A DNA stretch of 64,000 nt from a virus: the IMG/VR virus record IMGVR_UViG_3300025093_000012, positions 1-64,000 of that record. One strand, given 5' to 3'. The notes under the pieces are model-generated. The model saw only the letters and a program-made list of their open reading frames with translations. It was not told the origin of the DNA and ran no database searches. Shown here in pieces: positions 1 through 7,054 of this stretch. The translations under genes were made by a program, and so were the position numbers. Each line of letters starts with the position of its first letter. The first letter of the stretch is position 1.

Positions 1-137
1 TTAGTTGGTCTACAAGCAGGATATGGTCTTTTAGATCCTGATCTAGACTTTCTGCCACAAGGCTTTCCTGTCTTACAGTCTATCCAACCTTTACCGTTGT
101 TTCTGCTAAACCATTTACGTAAACCTTCCTTAGCCAT
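1..137 (-). CDS. small basic Cys-containing phage protein (runs off window start)
   Basis: Manual translation MAKEGLRKWFSRNNGKGWIDCKTGKPCGRKSRSGSKRPYPACRPT; the ATG overlaps the upstream stop (TAATG coupling at 135-139). Confidence 0.7.
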   Translation of the reverse strand, partial: MAKEGLRKWFSRNNGKGWIDCKTGKPCGRKSRSGSKRPYPACRPT

Positions 138-346
138 TACTTCTTCTTTTTCTTTTTCTTTTTAGAGTTGCCCCAATTAGCAGCCCCCACCTTTCTACAC
201 TTAACCAATGCCCCCGAACCATATGCTGATGGCCAAGTACCCCCGTTCCTAGTGTATCTTGCTTTCACTTTATGGTAGCATGCATCCTTCTTACTACCAC
301 CCTTTTTATATTCCTTGTCTTCTTTGACCTTTTTTAGTACGCTCAT
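137..346 (-). CDS. small Lys-rich phage protein (DACYHKVK..WPSAY type)
   Basis: 69 aa ORF coupled to both neighbours; the motif type recurs in aquatic phages. Confidence 0.7.
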   Translation of the reverse strand: MSVLKKVKEDKEYKKGGSKKDACYHKVKARYTRNGGTWPSAYGSGALVKCRKVGAANWGNSKKKKKKKK

Positions 347-591
347 ATCCTATACCTTTTACGTTTCTTCTGAACCCTCTGTTGAATTTTAGCGAGATTA
401 TAGTATTGGCTCAGGTGCTCCACCCATACCAACACATCTGCTATCTCCTCTTCTATCTCATCAGTGTGATCCACTTGCTTATTCATATCCTGCATCAATG
501 CGGTTGCAAGTTCACAGCATTCTTCCACTGTCTTCTGTCTTGCAAACTGCTTTCCGCTTTCAACCTTTGTTTTTTTAATAATGCTGTACAT
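343..591 (-). CDS. MazG-like NTP pyrophosphohydrolase
   Basis: EECCEL...EEEIADV (ExxE/ExxD) all-alpha NTP-PPase pattern; start moved to MYSII at 591. Confidence 0.7.
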   Translation of the reverse strand: MYSIIKKTKVESGKQFARQKTVEECCELATALMQDMNKQVDHTDEIEEEIADVLVWVEHLSQYYNLAKIQQRVQKKRKRYRI

Positions 592-631
592 AATTGTTTG
601 ATTTAATTTTACTACACAATATACAACACAA

Positions 632-952
632 TTATTCAACCACAGCTTTACGTGCGTCAATGATGTCACGTATCTCAGCACACTTCTCATACTCCTCTGT
701 ATCTACAAAATAGTACATCATATTCTCCAAAGTATCCATAGACGGATCTTCATCTGGGTTGTGCGCACATAACGCCTGCACAGTTGCCTTATCATTTGAT
801 TCTTCACTGAACATCTTCTCAATACTACTTCTACCTGTAATAATCATGAATGAATTCCTAAATGCAGTATCAACTATTAAGTCCTCTAGATCCTGTTTTT
901 GTTGAAATGATAAATCATCCATACCTTCAAATGCGTCAAATTCTTCTGACAT
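632..952 (-). CDS. acidic hypothetical protein with UVR-like C-terminal motif
   Basis: 106 aa; C-terminal EEYEKCAEIRD resembles the UvrB/UvrC motif. Confidence 0.65.
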   Translation of the reverse strand: MSEEFDAFEGMDDLSFQQKQDLEDLIVDTAFRNSFMIITGRSSIEKMFSEESNDKATVQALCAHNPDEDPSMDTLENMMYYFVDTEEYEKCAEIRDIIDARKAVVE

Positions 953-1008
953 TTTTATTTATTTTTTTTGGTTAAACATTCCCTTCTCTAAAGGATTACT
1001 GTACATAC

Positions 1009-1023
1009 ATAATATACAAAAAA
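1009..1023 (-). promoter_or_regulatory. putative phage promoter TTTTTGTATATTAT
   Basis: The same 14-mer occurs at 33581 and 35123, each upstream of a minus-strand gene. Confidence 0.6.
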
Positions 1024-1149
1024 TTCCTGGGTATTGAAAATTTACTGTGTGTGAAGTTCTTGGAACCTTATAACAATCAGCTCCCCGTCTTAACATTGGG
1101 TAACGTCCACCCCCTATGTCAAAGTGTGGACAAGCTAAAATCAAAAAAT

Positions 1150-1437
1150 ATGGCTAACGCAATTTTTTTCCACAAGATAGTAAATAACACTATCATTGTC
1201 AAGTCCTCAGTCCTATCTCTTAACAAGAAAGAACTGAACGGACAGACAACCTACAGTAGACAACAAGGTCAGGTGACCTATGGTCTACTATGCCTTTGTG
1301 ATGCTGATGGTAATACCATCAACCCACAAACACTGGGCCTCAAGAAGGACCAAGAGCTAAAGGGCTACAGGTTGACTAACAACCCTGTCCTTGACCAGGA
1401 AACTGGTGAAGAAACAGGTATGTTCTGGGCTGAATAA
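1150..1437 (+). CDS. hypothetical protein, first gene of the rightward block
   Basis: ATG at 1150 after an A-rich leader; hairpin overlaps the stop (1422-1446). Confidence 0.7.
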   Translation: MANAIFFHKIVNNTIIVKSSVLSLNKKELNGQTTYSRQQGQVTYGLLCLCDADGNTINPQTLGLKKDQELKGYRLTNNPVLDQETGEETGMFWAE

Positions 1438-2063
1438 GCCTGGAACTTGCCTGCCTGTGGAAACACAGGTTCTGAAGATGTGGTGACCCATTATAGTTAC
1501 GTGGACTTTGTGTACACTAACTATGTGGTTCCACTTACACTCTGCTTAATAATGTACTACTAAACACTCCAACTCCAGTTGATAGCTGTTGCAGTTGCAA
1601 TTTAGTTACATTTTTATTTGTTGTGTACGTTAAATTGTGTGTGTGAGGTCTTAATCACCACAATTACCCACTTCTTCCCACTACTATTACTGTCTATGAT
1701 AGTAATATATAATATAGCTATAACCACTGTATTTGTGAGTTTTAATTTGAGTCTGTTTGTTTCCTACACACTCTTATAGTGGTTATGGCTTTCTCTTGTT
1801 CTTTCTCTATAGGATAAGAGCTATATCAACCGCAATATTAAAAAATATAGAAAGGCTGTACTATTAGTCAATGACACATTGGCAACAGCGTATTCCTAAG
1901 CAAGAAGACAAACTGCTTAAATAATATTCTAGTTCCAAAGGGTAGGATTGATCACCTGTAATAATTTCCTAAAAAGTGGGAGACTGTTTAACAGTTCGTA
2001 GTAGTCACATTATGTGGAACCACAACTAGAATATTAAATTAATTAACCTCAATCTTAAAACTT

Positions 2064-2270
2064 ATGACACCACTAAATCCAATTGTGAGAACAGTAATCA
2101 AAGTATTATACCTAATTGTGTTACCTACTATATCTGTAGCACTATGGGTAATGTTATACAACAATGGAATCTTGAATACACCAATCAAGATATTCCTTGT
2201 TAGTTTCCTTTCCTTTCTAGGTCTATTTGCATCAGGATTATTCTGGTGGATAGCTTGGATTAATAGATAA
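2064..2270 (+). CDS. small two-TM membrane protein
   Basis: Two hydrophobic stretches; A-rich leader. Confidence 0.65.
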   Translation: MTPLNPIVRTVIKVLYLIVLPTISVALWVMLYNNGILNTPIKIFLVSFLSFLGLFASGLFWWIAWINR

Positions 2271-2274
2271 ATAT

Positions 2275-3175
2275 ATATTAGGTTCTATAGAGTTACCTAA
2301 GTACACAAAACTCTTGACACTGATCAGATGCATATGATCACCGTTTAAAAGGAGATACAATAGAATTCAGCCTTTAATGCGTAACCGTGTCTTATCAGAA
2401 TGGTGAGAATCCATACAACGTTTAATATATACCGTGGCTCATGTCTTGTCGTGAACAAGCATTAGTGTCTATAGAATATATTTGGCTGCTTATAGTCATT
2501 AGGATAATCCTGGTAACAGGAATAAAGTTTACACAGAAGATTAAAACAGTTCTGTGTAGGCGTTGCATTATTGCAATCCATGTAAGCAAGGTAGCAACCA
2601 CAACAATAGCCGTATGGTGGAGTTGTGATTCCATTTGTCAGTGGAATTGAGTGTGAAAGCACAATAGGGGAACTACTAGGTAATGAAGAGAACTGTAGGT
2701 ATACAGTAATCTTTGTTATTAGTGTAATAGATGTGGTAACAGCATCTTGATTCACCGTGGGTAGACATATCTACACTGGATAGTTGTACTGCGTTGTCCT
2801 CAAAAGGGATGATGGGTAGCATTCTCATGCACTATCTGGATTCTGACATCTAGTGATTTTAATTAAACAATTAGAAAAGCTTAAGTCATGAGACATCTAG
2901 TAAGGACAATTACCTTATCACCTTGCAATATAGGTGGACTTTAGATCCGCAAGATCTATGGTTAGATGAAATTAAGTTCTACATAACAGCAGGGATGTTG
3001 TGAACCGTACCAGCGGGTGTGAATAAGATGGATTCTATAACTTACTTGATGAAAAACTGGTAGCACAGGATAAACTAGCGGTAATGTTGTCTACTATGCA
3101 GTAATGCATGGTGTGTATAATAGCAAAGACATTTGTTATAATGGCAATAGTTATGGTCACTTACTCAGCCTTAAC
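2275..3175 (+). ncRNA. candidate large structured ncRNA (GOLLD/ROOL-like)
   Basis: No convincing CDS; many short stems, GNRA tetraloops (2508-2521, 2651-2662, 2729-2747, 3093-3112) and T-loop UGAGAAU (2400-2414); G-U pairs favour the + strand. Boundaries are approximate. Confidence 0.65.
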
Positions 3176-3214
3176 ATTTTTTACTCAATCTTTAATAATT
3201 TAAAAACTACTACA

Positions 3215-3559
3215 ATGAAAGTATTATTTAGCATGAAAAAGGATATTCTTATTCATATTCTTTTACCAATGATGGTTATTGCATTAACCGTATTAATTTT
3301 CAAAGCAGAGGTGTTTGACTGGAGTCTTATTGCCTGTGTTACACCACTTGCATTAGCTACTGTTTTCTTACAGTGGGCACAGTGGTCATCTTATCCTAGA
3401 CAATCTAGAATAAAATTTACACGTGAGTTTATTCCTTCTGTAGGATTTTCTTTCGTAGTAAATCACCATCAGAAGGGAATTGGTATTCTATTACCATGCT
3501 TCTTCTTTTGTATTGAGTTTCAAGACTTGTATTTATTTCATAAAAAGCAAGTATCATGA
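3215..3559 (+). CDS. membrane protein
   Basis: Hydrophobic segments; likely start MKVLFS at 3215. Confidence 0.6.
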   Translation: MKVLFSMKKDILIHILLPMMVIALTVLIFKAEVFDWSLIACVTPLALATVFLQWAQWSSYPRQSRIKFTREFIPSVGFSFVVNHHQKGIGILLPCFFFCIEFQDLYLFHKKQVS

Positions 3560-3783
3560 GACATATCAAGAGATTAATTGCACCAATCAAGCTATTCGTA
3601 GCTTGGTTGTTTGCACACTTGTTATCTTGGGTAACAGTGTTTATTAGCATTCCTACAGTAGAATTCTTACTTGCAAAAGAATATTGGAGTACTGCAGGTC
3701 ACATAGTATTCATCATATCATTCATTATATACTTTGCAATGACAATAGTATTCTTGTTTGATTTAAAACGTAAAGGATCATGA
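3556..3783 (+). CDS. two-TM membrane protein
   Basis: ATGA-coupled on both sides; two hydrophobic helices. Confidence 0.65.
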   Translation: MRHIKRLIAPIKLFVAWLFAHLLSWVTVFISIPTVEFLLAKEYWSTAGHIVFIISFIIYFAMTIVFLFDLKRKGS

Positions 3784-4319
3784 TTTTTGATTTAGCTAAG
3801 TCTTTTTGGAATAGACTCTTCAATACTGAGGAGTCTTTCCAAGAGGATGAACACAACTACAAAAGAGTATTTAAAACTGATAGAGGTCAGATTGTTAAAG
3901 TCCCTAAGATACTTTCTGTAAGTAATGATATAATTATTTACACAAGTGAGTATTTTATGGGTACTTGTCAGCAATCTTACTGTACCAGAACAAATACCAT
4001 GAGTGTTCAATTTCGTATAATGGATTGGAATTTACCAAAATACTTTCTTAAGAATATTGGTAAGTACTTCATTGAAGTAAATGAATTTGAATACCAAGGC
4101 TTTACTGTTAAAGCATCAGCATGTGAGCAGTCAATCATTATAAACTTCCATAAGGATTATGCAAATGGTCCTAAATATTTGGATAGTTATGAAGAGATTA
4201 ACTACTTAAAAGACTTTGATCGTCTAAGAAAAAAGATGAAACATTTTGTTAAGCAAAACAAACATCTTAATTTTGAGCATGATCAATTGCTGATTGCTGT
4301 AGATATTTCTCAAATATGA
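3780..4319 (+). CDS. hypothetical protein
   Basis: 179 aa ORF with ATGA overlap. Confidence 0.65.
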   Translation: MIFDLAKSFWNRLFNTEESFQEDEHNYKRVFKTDRGQIVKVPKILSVSNDIIIYTSEYFMGTCQQSYCTRTNTMSVQFRIMDWNLPKYFLKNIGKYFIEVNEFEYQGFTVKASACEQSIIINFHKDYANGPKYLDSYEEINYLKDFDRLRKKMKHFVKQNKHLNFEHDQLLIAVDISQI

Positions 4320-4386
4320 GAAACATAACAGTACCAGTATATAGTTAGAGATTTAGTAGTCAGTAATGGTTATTAAGTTTGAGTGG

Positions 4387-4418
4387 GTAGTGGGGTAGTG
4401 TAATAGCTACCTCACTAC
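4387..4418 (+). terminator. hairpin immediately upstream of tRNA-Arg (terminator or processing site)
   Basis: GTAGTGGGGTAG-loop-CTACCTCACTAC stem. Confidence 0.45.
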
Positions 4419-4423
4419 TATTT

Positions 4424-4497
4424 GCTCCCATAGCTCAACTGGATAGAGCAACAGCCTTCTAAGCTGTAGGTTCTAGGTTCAAGTCCTAGTGGGAGTA
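4424..4497 (+). tRNA. tRNA-Arg(TCT)
   Basis: Acceptor GCTCCCA/TGGGAGT; anticodon arm ACAGC-CTTCTAA-GCTGT; T arm CTAGG-TTCAAGT-CCTAG; no encoded CCA. Confidence 0.95.
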
Positions 4498-4510
4498 CTA
4501 AAGGTGAATT

Positions 4511-4957
4511 ATGAATGTAAATAGAAAGTTAGCATGTATTATGGCATGTTTGATGTCAGTATCATTATACGGAAGTAATGACACATTTCCTCCATTAGAG
4601 TTTTTTGTTGATGCACTTATACAAGTAGAATCAAGAGGTGACTCAACTGCAGTAGGAGATGGTGGCAAAGCAGTAGGAGTATTGCAGATACATCCAATAA
4701 TGGTTAGAGAAGTAAATAGAATATTAAATAAACAAGGTTCTGATAAGAGATATGAATATGAAGATAGGTGGTCTGTTAGATCTTCTATAGAAATGTTTCA
4801 TATTTGGAGAAAGTATTATCACTCAAACTCATCATATGAAGTCATGGCTAGATCATGGAATGGTGGACCAGGTGGTCCGTACAGTAGATACACATTGTGC
4901 TATTGGAAGAAAGTGAAAAATGCTATGCTTGTTATTAGTGCCTCTAATGGATTATAA
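4511..4957 (+). CDS. lysozyme-like / lytic transglycosylase (SLT) with signal peptide
   Basis: LIQVES catalytic Glu, AVGVLQI, ARSWNGGP; hydrophobic N-terminus. Confidence 0.8.
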   Translation: MNVNRKLACIMACLMSVSLYGSNDTFPPLEFFVDALIQVESRGDSTAVGDGGKAVGVLQIHPIMVREVNRILNKQGSDKRYEYEDRWSVRSSIEMFHIWRKYYHSNSSYEVMARSWNGGPGGPYSRYTLCYWKKVKNAMLVISASNGL

Positions 4958-4959
4958 AT

Positions 4960-5388
4960 ATGAAAGAATTAATTGAATTTATTAAGGATGACTTTGCAGG
5001 ATTTGTAAAGTTAATCTTTGGAGCTGCAGCTACATCAGCTGTAGTAATAGTATTATTAGTAATGATTATGACCTGTACAGGTTGTGAAAAAGCAGAAGAC
5101 CTTCAGCCACCAACTAATGTTGAATTATCTGTAAATCTTAATGGAAGAACGTGTGGATGTGTAATAGAACAGACATCTCCTAATATGGATTATGATTGTA
5201 AATACAGAGGTGAAGGAACTTTGAATGGTGATTCTTGTGAAATTGTTATATGGGCTTTGCAAGAAGGACCATACTTTCCTTTCTTGGAGTCTTTTCCAAT
5301 TTATTTGAATGGTAACCCTGAAGGTAATGTAGATTGGTACACTACCTATGAAGGATCAAATGTAGTCATCCATGCAGAAAAATATTAA
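4960..5388 (+). CDS. putative lipoprotein or membrane-anchored protein
   Basis: Hydrophobic helix ending TCTGC followed by a polar domain. Confidence 0.6.
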   Translation: MKELIEFIKDDFAGFVKLIFGAAATSAVVIVLLVMIMTCTGCEKAEDLQPPTNVELSVNLNGRTCGCVIEQTSPNMDYDCKYRGEGTLNGDSCEIVIWALQEGPYFPFLESFPIYLNGNPEGNVDWYTTYEGSNVVIHAEKY

Positions 5389-5833
5389 AGTAGATGTGAG
5401 TCAGATTAAATATCTACTCAGAGATATGTTTAATGAAAAGTATATAAAGAATGGAGTAGCAATTGATGCTATATTTAATATGCTAAGTGAATCAGATATT
5501 GATTTGCTTATGCATATTTATAGTAGACCTGATTATAAGTTTCTAAGTTTAAACCAGAGGGTTAAGTTTAAACCTTCAAAGTATGACTTGGAGAATACAA
5601 ATATTGATACTCTTATTGATACAGGATATGCTAACCTAGATGGTTGGCATTATGGCATTGTTAAAGGAGATACCAGTTATAATAGTGGTTTCAATCCAAC
5701 TTATCATAGAATGGTTGTTCAAACTATGACAACAGATGCTGATAATTGCACTATACCAATTGAAATAGAAGTTTATACTTCTACTTTATATCCTGTTGAA
5801 GACAATGAAGGCAAATGGAAAGGTTTGGAATAG
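5372..5833 (+). CDS. hypothetical protein
   Basis: 153 aa ORF in operon. Confidence 0.65.
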   Translation: MQKNIKVDVSQIKYLLRDMFNEKYIKNGVAIDAIFNMLSESDIDLLMHIYSRPDYKFLSLNQRVKFKPSKYDLENTNIDTLIDTGYANLDGWHYGIVKGDTSYNSGFNPTYHRMVVQTMTTDADNCTIPIEIEVYTSTLYPVEDNEGKWKGLE

Positions 5834-6439: not shown

Positions 6440-7054
6440 ATGACAAATGGTAAAGTAACTATTGTTGCAGATGACAATGGTAGTGTAATTAGAGTGTCCA
6501 AGAACAATCCTGAGTATGGACATGTAAGATTAGTTCAGGAGAAAACGTTTATTGGTTCAGGAAACTGGGCTAAAAGACAAACAAGAAGTACCTTAATTCA
6601 TGGTACAGTAGAAGATCTACAAGCTACAGGGCTAGCTGAGGCAAAAGAATTGCCAGGTCATATTGTAATTAGAGAACAACTTGAACCATTTCAAGAGAAA
6701 GATGGTGATAGAGATCTTAAAGTTGCTGGAGATACAGGTGTTATCTGTTGTTCATATGGTCAACCTATTTATAGGAAAGCCTTCTACTCTATGGATTTAA
6801 GTGAACCAGATGTTCTTATCCAACACACAAATCAAGATGCTATTAGAGAAGCTAATGGTCTTGAGCCACGTGGAACTCAAATTTCAAAAGAGCATATGGA
6901 AGAAATAACTGCTAACGTTCAAGAAGAAGAGCCTAAGTCAACAAGACGCAATAAGGCTAAAGAGAATGAGCAGGTAGATCTTGAAGACTCTATTGAAGAA
7001 GTAGAGAACACTGAAGAAATTGAGGTAGAAGAGGATGATTCCTTTGAACTTTAA
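6440..7054 (+). CDS. hypothetical protein with acidic tail (possible ssDNA-binding protein)
   Basis: Beta-rich N-domain and acidic tail ending DDSFEL; followed by a terminator. Confidence 0.6.
   Translation: MTNGKVTIVADDNGSVIRVSKNNPEYGHVRLVQEKTFIGSGNWAKRQTRSTLIHGTVEDLQATGLAEAKELPGHIVIREQLEPFQEKDGDRDLKVAGDTGVICCSYGQPIYRKAFYSMDLSEPDVLIQHTNQDAIREANGLEPRGTQISKEHMEEITANVQEEEPKSTRRNKAKENEQVDLEDSIEEVENTEEIEVEEDDSFEL

Follow-up and report, generated by a model that had tools for sequence, protein, structure and literature searches.

A probable distant GOLLD homolog encoded by an aquatic crAss-like phage

The question addressed here was what is encoded, if not protein, by the stretch at positions 2275-3175, close to the left end of an IMG/VR virus record of 112,837 bp (IMGVR_UViG_3300025093_000012; CheckV completeness 96%). 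The sequence analyzed, hereafter the window, comprised the first 64,000 nucleotides of that record. The first-pass annotation of the window had described the stretch as an ORF-poor, densely structured region of a crAss-like phage, and had proposed either a relative of the GOLLD or ROOL RNAs or a new large RNA class. In size and elaboration, GOLLD RNAs rank among the foremost RNAs of bacteria or phages. The family (RF02032) was reportedly described by Weinberg et al. in 2009, and we know of no biological role for it, its cargo and its benefit to the phage included. From the combined evidence we concluded, at a probability of about 0.9, that ~2408-3171 of the plus strand was a gene for a stand-alone non-coding RNA of ~762 nt, which was a distant homolog of GOLLD.

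Coding content, folding and family assignment

The ORF-poor character of the stretch was borne out. The longest reading frames within 2275-3103 (code 11) were short and overlapping, being 97 aa and 70 aa on the minus strand and 69 aa on the plus strand. The presence of ORFs of 69-97 aa would be in keeping with protein-coding DNA, either as small overlapping ORFs or as an alternative-code gene. However, reading TAG as Q or TGA as W opened no long frame in 2275-3175, and the remainder of the 64-kb window was gene-packed and read well in the ordinary code 11. The codon-type conservation of a short ORF, which the first-pass annotation had set against an RNA, was also looked for: none of the ORFs was retained in lineage B, nor in L109, in spite of the 92% identity of the latter copy. 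The coding explanation was therefore considered the least probable of all those weighed here. The features surrounding the stretch were the following.

2064-2270, plus strand: hydrophobic ORF of 68 aa, upstream of the RNA (context only)
3215-3559, plus strand: hydrophobic ORF of 114 aa, beginning 44 nt past the RNA (context only)
4424-4498, plus strand: tRNA-Arg(UCU), the nearest tRNA gene, 1.25 kb downstream of the RNA (Rfam and ARAGORN)

No family was matched in a PHROG search with the two small flanking ORFs (68 aa and 114 aa). The tRNA that had been noticed ~1.2 kb downstream was real and was the tRNA-Arg(UCU) listed above; tRNA-Leu and tRNA-Met were located 5 kb downstream of the RNA.

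The dense structure read earlier from the letters was upheld by comparison with dinucleotide shuffles, which were outperformed on the plus strand only. The MFE z-score of 2275-3175 was -4.20 on the plus strand and -0.79 on the minus strand, and that of the probable mature RNA (2408-3171, plus strand) was -5.31. Eleven of the twelve stems listed by the first-pass annotation were present in the sequence, and most of them were recovered in the MFE fold, in the Rfam-guided structure or in both. The stems 2778-2784/2831-2837, 2942-2958 and 3093-3112 proved to be helices of the GOLLD model, the GAAA-loop stem 2651-2662 was preserved in all three full-length lineages described below, and the stem 2692-2707 carried a double change (G>A/C>U) in L109. 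The long-range pairing 3008-3013/3057-3062, which had also been listed, was absent from the Rfam-guided structure.

At the Rfam gathering thresholds the window contained three tRNAs and nothing else. The models of ROOL, OLE, group I-II introns, RNase P and tmRNA gave no match at E<=10 in window positions 1-5000, and GOLLD was the sole strong Rfam match besides tRNA. The GOLLD model RF02032 was aligned over its full length (model positions 1-416) with 2778-3171 of the plus strand at 73 bits, with an E-value of 4.3e-18 in a 5-kb search and of 2.3e-20 in a whole-genome search. The gathering threshold of RF02032 is 150 bits, hence Rfam's own pipeline would not annotate the window RNA; that threshold was set by curators and does not reflect the biology of the RNA. 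Kretsch et al. (2025) gathered 806 GOLLDs by using cmsearch at E<=1e-5 (PMC12286853), and the window RNA, at 4.3e-18, lay far within that limit.

The Rfam consensus structure of 98 model pairs was mapped on the window. Both residues were present in 90 of the pairs, and 84 of these 90 (93%) were Watson-Crick or G-U, when shuffles gave 35.9±4.3 (maximum 49, n=1000) and sliding the 3' partner by 1-3 nt gave 30-42. The departures from the model consisted of six non-canonical pairs and eight pairs that were partly or wholly deleted. Across 14 aligned 3' domains, no variation was seen in AGCNNAAGU, CGCAAG or CUCAGCC, and the first loop had a conserved AAAAG core. The window lineage shares these signature motifs unchanged with canonical GOLLDs (193-203 bits) and with four further sub-threshold lineages. 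The registration of the 14 divergent 3' domains by MAFFT was too poor for RNAalifold or structure projection, therefore the pair counts were limited to lineages alignable by sequence. Additionally, the model R1, built from two near-identical sequences, misaligned lineages C and D.

A new large RNA class sharing a few GOLLD motifs by convergence or chance would agree with the score under the Rfam cut-off, with a 5' half that could not be aligned to canonical GOLLD 5' halves, and with the failure of the Rfam-based genome pipeline to find the 92%-identical copy of G042 and the copy of G019. On the other hand, full-length model alignments with E-values of 1e-17 to 1e-24 were obtained for several independent lineages, and pairing reached 93% of the model pairs, with the pseudoknot and every signature motif at homologous positions. 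A variable 5' half is, moreover, itself typical of GOLLD (PMC12286853). A new class was hence judged very unlikely, and the window RNA is a divergent GOLLD. Thus, of the earlier suggestions, GOLLD was the right one, with the full-model match, the pairs, the pseudoknot and the motifs kept, whereas the ROOL relative and the new class had to be given up.

Parts, ends and covariation of the RNA

The RNA and the block preceding it were divided into the following parts.

2274-2407, plus strand: upstream block travelling with the RNA, conserved with L109 and outside the cover of the RNA contigs
2408-2777, plus strand: 5' domain, ~370 nt of lineage-specific ornate hairpins (MFE fold, 121 pairs)
2778-3171, plus strand: 3' domain, the conserved GOLLD core holding all of RF02032 (covariance model)
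2778-2837, plus strand: first stem-loop of the 3' domain, apical loop UCAAAAG at 2800-2806 (7/7 and 14/14 pairs formed)
2838-2874, plus strand: variable A/U-rich linker of ~37 nt, aligning to the unstructured Rfam linker
2875-2887, plus strand: junction motif AAAAGCUUAAGUC (family signature AGCNNAAGU), invariant in 14/14 aligned 3' domains
2894-2904, plus strand: pseudoknot 5' strand CAUCUAGUAAG, pairing with 3041-3051 (9/10 model pairs)
2937-2963, plus strand: hairpin with a CGCAA loop at 2948-2952 (Rfam helix, 8/9 pairs formed)
3041-3051, plus strand: pseudoknot 3' strand CUUACUUGAUG, partner of 2894-2904
3155-3171, plus strand: 3'-terminal hairpin with the conserved CUCAGCC(U), the RNA 3' end (Rfam alignment end; contig ends 3168 and 3170)

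All or part of the RNA stretch was contained in 20 public runs from marine, aquatic and freshwater samples, and six of these runs were metatranscriptomes. Four RNA runs from four studies (X7-X10) were mapped on window 1000-5500, and their contigs were identical to the window. A single 761-nt contig covered 2408-3168 in X7, and a contig of X10 covered 2410-3068. The contigs of X8 covered 2410-2750, 2721-2830 and 2801-3170, and those of X9 covered 2412-3160 in pieces, with an Illumina adapter immediately before 2412. The contigs of two runs ended at 3168 and 3170, and the 3' end fell where the Rfam model stops. The RNA contigs of the four runs did not cover the flanking genes, which carries no evidential weight. 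The ends were taken from assembled contigs, which give neither the strand nor the level nor the timing of the RNA, and their coincidence at 2408-2412 and 3168-3170 was a weak hint of a discrete RNA of ~762 nt, such as the first-pass annotation had proposed to look for in metatranscriptomes.

Since the RNA contigs began at 2408-2412, the mature RNA was probably about 2408-3171, and the hairpin 2400-2414 would then straddle its 5' end. The boundaries drawn earlier (2275-3175) nearly equaled the block conserved with L109 (2274-3170), but were probably too wide on the 5' side for the RNA, the contigs of which began only at 2408-2412. As the conserved block starts at 2274, the segment 2274-2407 was read as a probable promoter, a 5' leader removed by processing, or both. 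A sigma-70 promoter scan at the locus gave nothing above chance. The motif ATGYGTWAYCRTGTCT (2377-2392), upstream of the 5' end, was common to lineage B; its repeats in the genome were no more than chance, and it was not a recurrent phage promoter in this genome.

It was also considered that the RNA might be a long structured 5' leader regulating the downstream small membrane-protein genes in cis. The RNA is co-oriented with the genes that follow it, the next ORF begins 44 nt past it, and no intrinsic terminator was predicted at the locus. However, the contigs of two studies end at 3168-3170, where the family has its conserved CUCAGCC terminus, the downstream genes differ among the other phages carrying the RNA, and GOLLD is a stand-alone RNA wherever it was studied (PMC12286853). 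A cis-regulatory leader was thus held to be extremely improbable, and the stand-alone RNA was retained.

The homologs were found by motif scans and model search, and three lineages of full-length copies were available for covariation: A (the window and L109), E (L153, from G019) and B (L095, L111, L112, L113, L115 and L116). The identity to the window RNA was 92.8% for L109, 68.8% for L153 and ~50% for lineage B. Lineage E was alignable to the window by sequence alone and therefore provided an unbiased covariation test. When the 84 canonical pairs of the 3' domain were compared with L153, 44 were unchanged, 21 double and 6 single changes preserved the pair, and 12 pairs were broken; the slid controls gave 0-2 double changes. 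For the 5' domain, where 121 MFE pairs were taken from the window only, 66 pairs were unchanged, 17 were kept with double and 11 with single changes, 15 were broken and 12 were gapped, against 1-4 double changes in the slid controls. The compensatory changes that the first-pass annotation had proposed to seek among homologs were thus present in both domains. Three of the double changes were located in the outer stem of 2778-2837. In the hairpin 2937-2963, 7 of 9 pairs were changed yet paired in L153, around a CGCAAG that did not vary among the 14 sequences.

An alignment of lineages A and B gave a consensus structure of the 5' domain in which 90% of the cells were paired, compared with 31-43% after sliding, and 30 compensatory pairs were counted, compared with 2-5; none of 500 shuffles reached this count. 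The latter test was weaker evidence, because the sequences tested had also supplied the structure and only two lineages were involved. The window and L109 differed in 65 columns, 41 of which were unpaired positions or indels, and 15 of the 21 changed pairs remained or became canonical.

These comparisons bear on a further possibility, that of a decaying, non-functional GOLLD remnant. The low Rfam score, the deleted model pairs and the lack of the RNA in the nearest relatives would fit a remnant. Nevertheless, pairing was preserved in 27 of 39 changed pairs of the 3' domain and in 28 of 43 changed pairs of the 5' domain, the whole 0.9-kb block was 92% identical in G042 despite neighbor proteins at 33-56%, and exact-match contigs were present in RNA libraries of four studies. 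A remnant was accordingly regarded as even less likely than a new class.

The 5' domain was common only to lineages B and E and partly to L127, in an RNA of ~762 nt by the contigs. No alignment was obtained with the 5' halves of lineage D or of canonical GOLLDs, and L127 gave a partial match only. The hairpin GUGU-GAAA-GCAC at 2651-2662 was an invariant member of this domain. A candidate pairing of the 5' domain, past the GAAA hairpin, with a CUUAU segment of the 3' domain comprised 14 bp in lineage B and 6+2 bp here.

Within the 3' domain, the AAAAG core of the loop at 2800-2806 was kept in 14/14 aligned GOLLD 3' domains. No embedded tRNA was detected by ARAGORN in the linker 2838-2874, the position at which the canonical GOLLD copies carry a tRNA. 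The repeat GACATCTAGT was found at 2845-2854 in the linker and at 2891-2900, so that the 5' strand of the pseudoknot occurs a second time within the linker. The multi-stem hairpin loops of the window were GGGA and UACCAG, when those of the Rfam consensus were CGCAA and CGGAA.

The pseudoknot was searched for between the junction after AGCNNAAGU and a strand ~95 nt past CGCAA. In the window the 10-bp duplex 2895-2904/3041-3050 contained one U-U mismatch, and in L153 4 of the 10 pairs were changed and still pairing. The best duplex was located at the homologous position in 13 of 16 GOLLDs, and its sequence differed per lineage, being CAUCUAGUAAG/CUUACUUGAUG in the window, AGUAUUGAGUU/AACUCAAUACA in lineage B and CCUGCCGAGG/UUUCGGCAUG in canonical copies. 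The same position with a different sequence was observed in A, B, E, L124, L127, lineage D and the canonical copies. The best-duplex search was not significant per sequence against shuffles, and its weight lies in the recurrence of the position. As judged from these sequences, the predicted long-range pseudoknot covaries across at least six lineages.

Distribution and exchange of the cassette

A group of aquatic crAss-like phages carries the RNA on a cassette of ~0.9 kb (2274-3170) that occupies a single variable slot. The slot was located between homologs of a 128-aa gene (1051-1437) and of a 204-aa gene (6440-7054), and the same slot was occupied in G042 (the source of L109), G019 and G036. 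In G043 a copy was present downstream of the 128-aa homolog, and the 204-aa homolog was not found in that contig fragment. The nearest relatives, with a DNA polymerase 88% and two flanking proteins 66-68% identical, kept the flanks and had ~1.14 kb of different sequence where the window has positions 1850-4230, with no RNA copy.

By blastn, window 2274-3170 was aligned with L109 9687-10583 at 92.5% identity, and the flanks were unaligned. The RNA of G042 was 92.8% identical to that of the window, when the flanking proteins were merely 33-56% identical. Those proteins were no closer to the window's than were the flanking proteins of G019 and G036, the RNAs of which were 69% and 50% identical, respectively. 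The simplest reading is that distantly related phages have recently exchanged the 0.9-kb cassette; the alternative is an unusually strong constraint on the RNA. The presence/absence polymorphism in one syntenic slot, together with the signs of exchange, indicates that GOLLD is an accessory module open to exchange and does not belong to the core genes of the phages.

The closest DNA polymerase among named phages was that of Cellulophaga phage phi14:2 (Crassvirales, Steigviridae) at 36% identity, and a 5029-aa protein matched only the crAss001-type virion RNA polymerase subunit. On account of these two matches, the label crAss-like, given already by the first-pass annotation, was considered reasonable but distant. 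The host is probably an aquatic member of the Bacteroidota.

A search of 2200-3250 against GenBank phages by blastn in the distant mode gave no match. A related-locus search with a 179-aa neighbor protein found nothing, and one with a 148-aa neighbor yielded four relatives that were gene-packed at the locus and without GOLLD. The first motif pattern scan returned canonical GOLLDs only, in addition to three chance matches in a coding gene. The RF02032 genome pipeline was positive for 1 of 37 relatives. It missed the 92%-identical copy of G042 as well as that of G019, and therefore was not a reliable test of absence; its negative results for Cellulophaga phage phi14:2 and crAss001 are weak, as the same pipeline misses real copies.

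A pattern of the 3' domain retrieved further sub-threshold GOLLDs of 73-95 bits on phage contigs of 96-354 kb, beside tRNA arrays or tmRNA genes. These environmental variants were L117, L119, L120, L122, L124, L125 and L127. Further sub-threshold variants, L129, L134, L135, L139 and L147, were retrieved from rumen Prevotellaceae/Clostridia MAG contigs. The canonical GOLLDs used as reference scored 193-203 bits and held a tRNA in the linker.

No paper linking GOLLD with Crassvirales was found in a literature search. An aquatic crAss-like phage lineage is added here to the carriers of GOLLD, each of which broadens the comparative base, together with environmental RNA evidence hinting at a discrete GOLLD-type RNA of ~762 nt. 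A whole clade of GOLLD is overlooked by the Rfam threshold and even by E-value pipelines.

Proposed assembly and comparison with known systems

In the cryo-EM structure of the env-38 GOLLD, an RNA of 833 nt forms a 14-mer cage in which the 3' domains are the rings, the 5' domains are the caps and the linker is inside (PMC12286853). By analogy with env-38, many copies of the window RNA would self-assemble without protein into a closed cage, with the conserved 3' domains forming the rings, the 5' domains the caps, and the short linker facing the interior. Such a cage might act during lytic infection and would most plausibly hold or organize translation-related cargo, such as tRNAs or ribosomal particles.

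A pairing predicted from covariation, L20-J13/15, turned out to be an intermolecular bridge in the same structure (PMC12286853). By our mapping, the 5' strand of the Rfam pseudoknot would lie in J13/15, so the covarying duplex of the window RNA may be that bridge. Positional mapping likewise suggests that the multi-stem hairpin loops correspond to the symmetric kissing contacts between the half-shells of the solved structure. Since GGGA and UACCAG replace the consensus loops, neither the geometry of the cage nor its formation is assured, and with the altered loops and a short, tRNA-less linker carrying a second pseudoknot strand, the stoichiometry could differ.

We proposed, tentatively and as a rather unlikely extension, that the window RNA might represent a distinct GOLLD subtype. 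Such a subtype would have a new type of cap (5') domain, a GNRA tetraloop and UACCAG in place of the equatorial kissing loops, and a linker carrying a spare pseudoknot strand at 2845-2854. It would hence form a cage of different stoichiometry, or use alternative pairing to switch from a closed monomer to an open form able to assemble and back, and would spread between distant phages as a 0.9-kb cassette.

ROOL resembles the window RNA in being a large ornate phage RNA, often near tRNAs, that forms an RNA-only cage. However, ROOL has a different sequence and fold, with intertwined 5' and 3' halves (PMC12286853), and its Rfam model had no match in the window at E<=10.

The sub-threshold variants, environmental and rumen, share with the window RNA the spacing of AGCNNAAGUNNUG...CGCAAG...CUCAGCC and the position of the pseudoknot, and all of them score below the cut-off. 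Their 5' domains are unrelated in sequence to that of the window, L127 being partially related, and most of them adjoin tRNA arrays or tmRNA genes.

GOLLD itself is encoded by phages or prophages, often near tRNA genes, and the window RNA is likewise phage-borne, with tRNAs nearby and none directly adjacent. The window RNA departs from canonical GOLLD in its non-alignable 5' domain, in a linker of ~37 nt without a tRNA and in a nearest tRNA 1.25 kb away. It departs from the consensus in the loops GGGA and UACCAG and in the score of 73 bits against the 150-bit cut-off, and its carrier, an aquatic crAss-like phage, differs from known GOLLD systems. At ~762 nt the RNA is comparable with the 833 nt of env-38, and it likewise consists of two domains, the first 3' stem-loop being joined to the core by a variable linker. 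The architecture of the 3' domain is identical helix for helix, the long-range pseudoknot included, and the UCAAAAG loop, AGCNNAAGU, the CGCAA loop and the CUCAGCC end, the signature motifs of GOLLD, are retained.

Pairing within the GOLLD-like RNA

Based on the RNAalifold consensus, positions 2661-2670, which directly follow the 5'-domain GAAA hairpin, were paired with a conserved 3'-domain segment, CUUAU (2911-2918). The complementarity of these segments in the window was only 6+2 bp, compared with 14 bp at the equivalent positions of three RNAs of the ~50% identical lineage B (L095, L111 and L113), a length that was reached by 1-3 of 100 shuffled sequences. It is possible that this pairing forms a contact between domains or between subunits.

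The 10-mer GACATCTAGT was found twice in the window:
2845-2854, variable linker
2891-2900, pseudoknot 5' strand

The linker copy was retained in L109, the 92.8% identical RNA of phage G042. Its pairing with 3041-3051, the 3' strand of the pseudoknot, would be nearly as good as that of the 5' strand, and the duplication may represent a putative switch operating by alternative pairing.

Detection of related copies

True sub-threshold GOLLDs escaped the RF02032 searches, the copies of G042 (L109), lineage B member L112 and contig G019 being among those missed; one of the missed copies was 92% identical to a sequence scoring 73 bits. The absence of GOLLD can be called only with a clade-specific model.

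In the G019 contig (IMGVR_UViG_3300030098_004828, 245,646 bp), a DNA polymerase gene and a homolog of the 204-aa gene that flanks the RNA slot each occurred twice, ~121-124 kb apart. Despite these paired genes, one GOLLD copy only was detected. The contig looks like two related genomes fused together rather than a clean dimer.

Surroundings of the RNA gene

Three small hydrophobic ORFs flanked the RNA:
2064-2270, 68 aa
3215-3559, 114 aa
3556-3783, 75 aa

None of them matched a PHROG family or was conserved among the other RNA-carrying phages.

Another ORF-free stretch (1440-2060), for which Rfam gave no match, was observed directly upstream of the GOLLD region. Folding of its + strand at 1580-1930 was better than that of shuffled sequences (z -4.35), with no such excess on the - strand (z -1.78). 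Parts of the stretch (1598-1923) were 71-80% identical in the nearest relatives without a GOLLD, and RNA contigs of low depth covered 1170-1376 and 1473-1779. The stretch could be a further small RNA, a regulatory region or an origin region.

In several large phage contigs, phage-encoded tmRNA genes, accompanied by long tRNA arrays, were located ~0.6-2 kb from the GOLLD gene. The loci noted were:
L120, 9375-9779, phage contig with a sub-threshold GOLLD
L119, 942-1349, likewise
L007, L010 and L012
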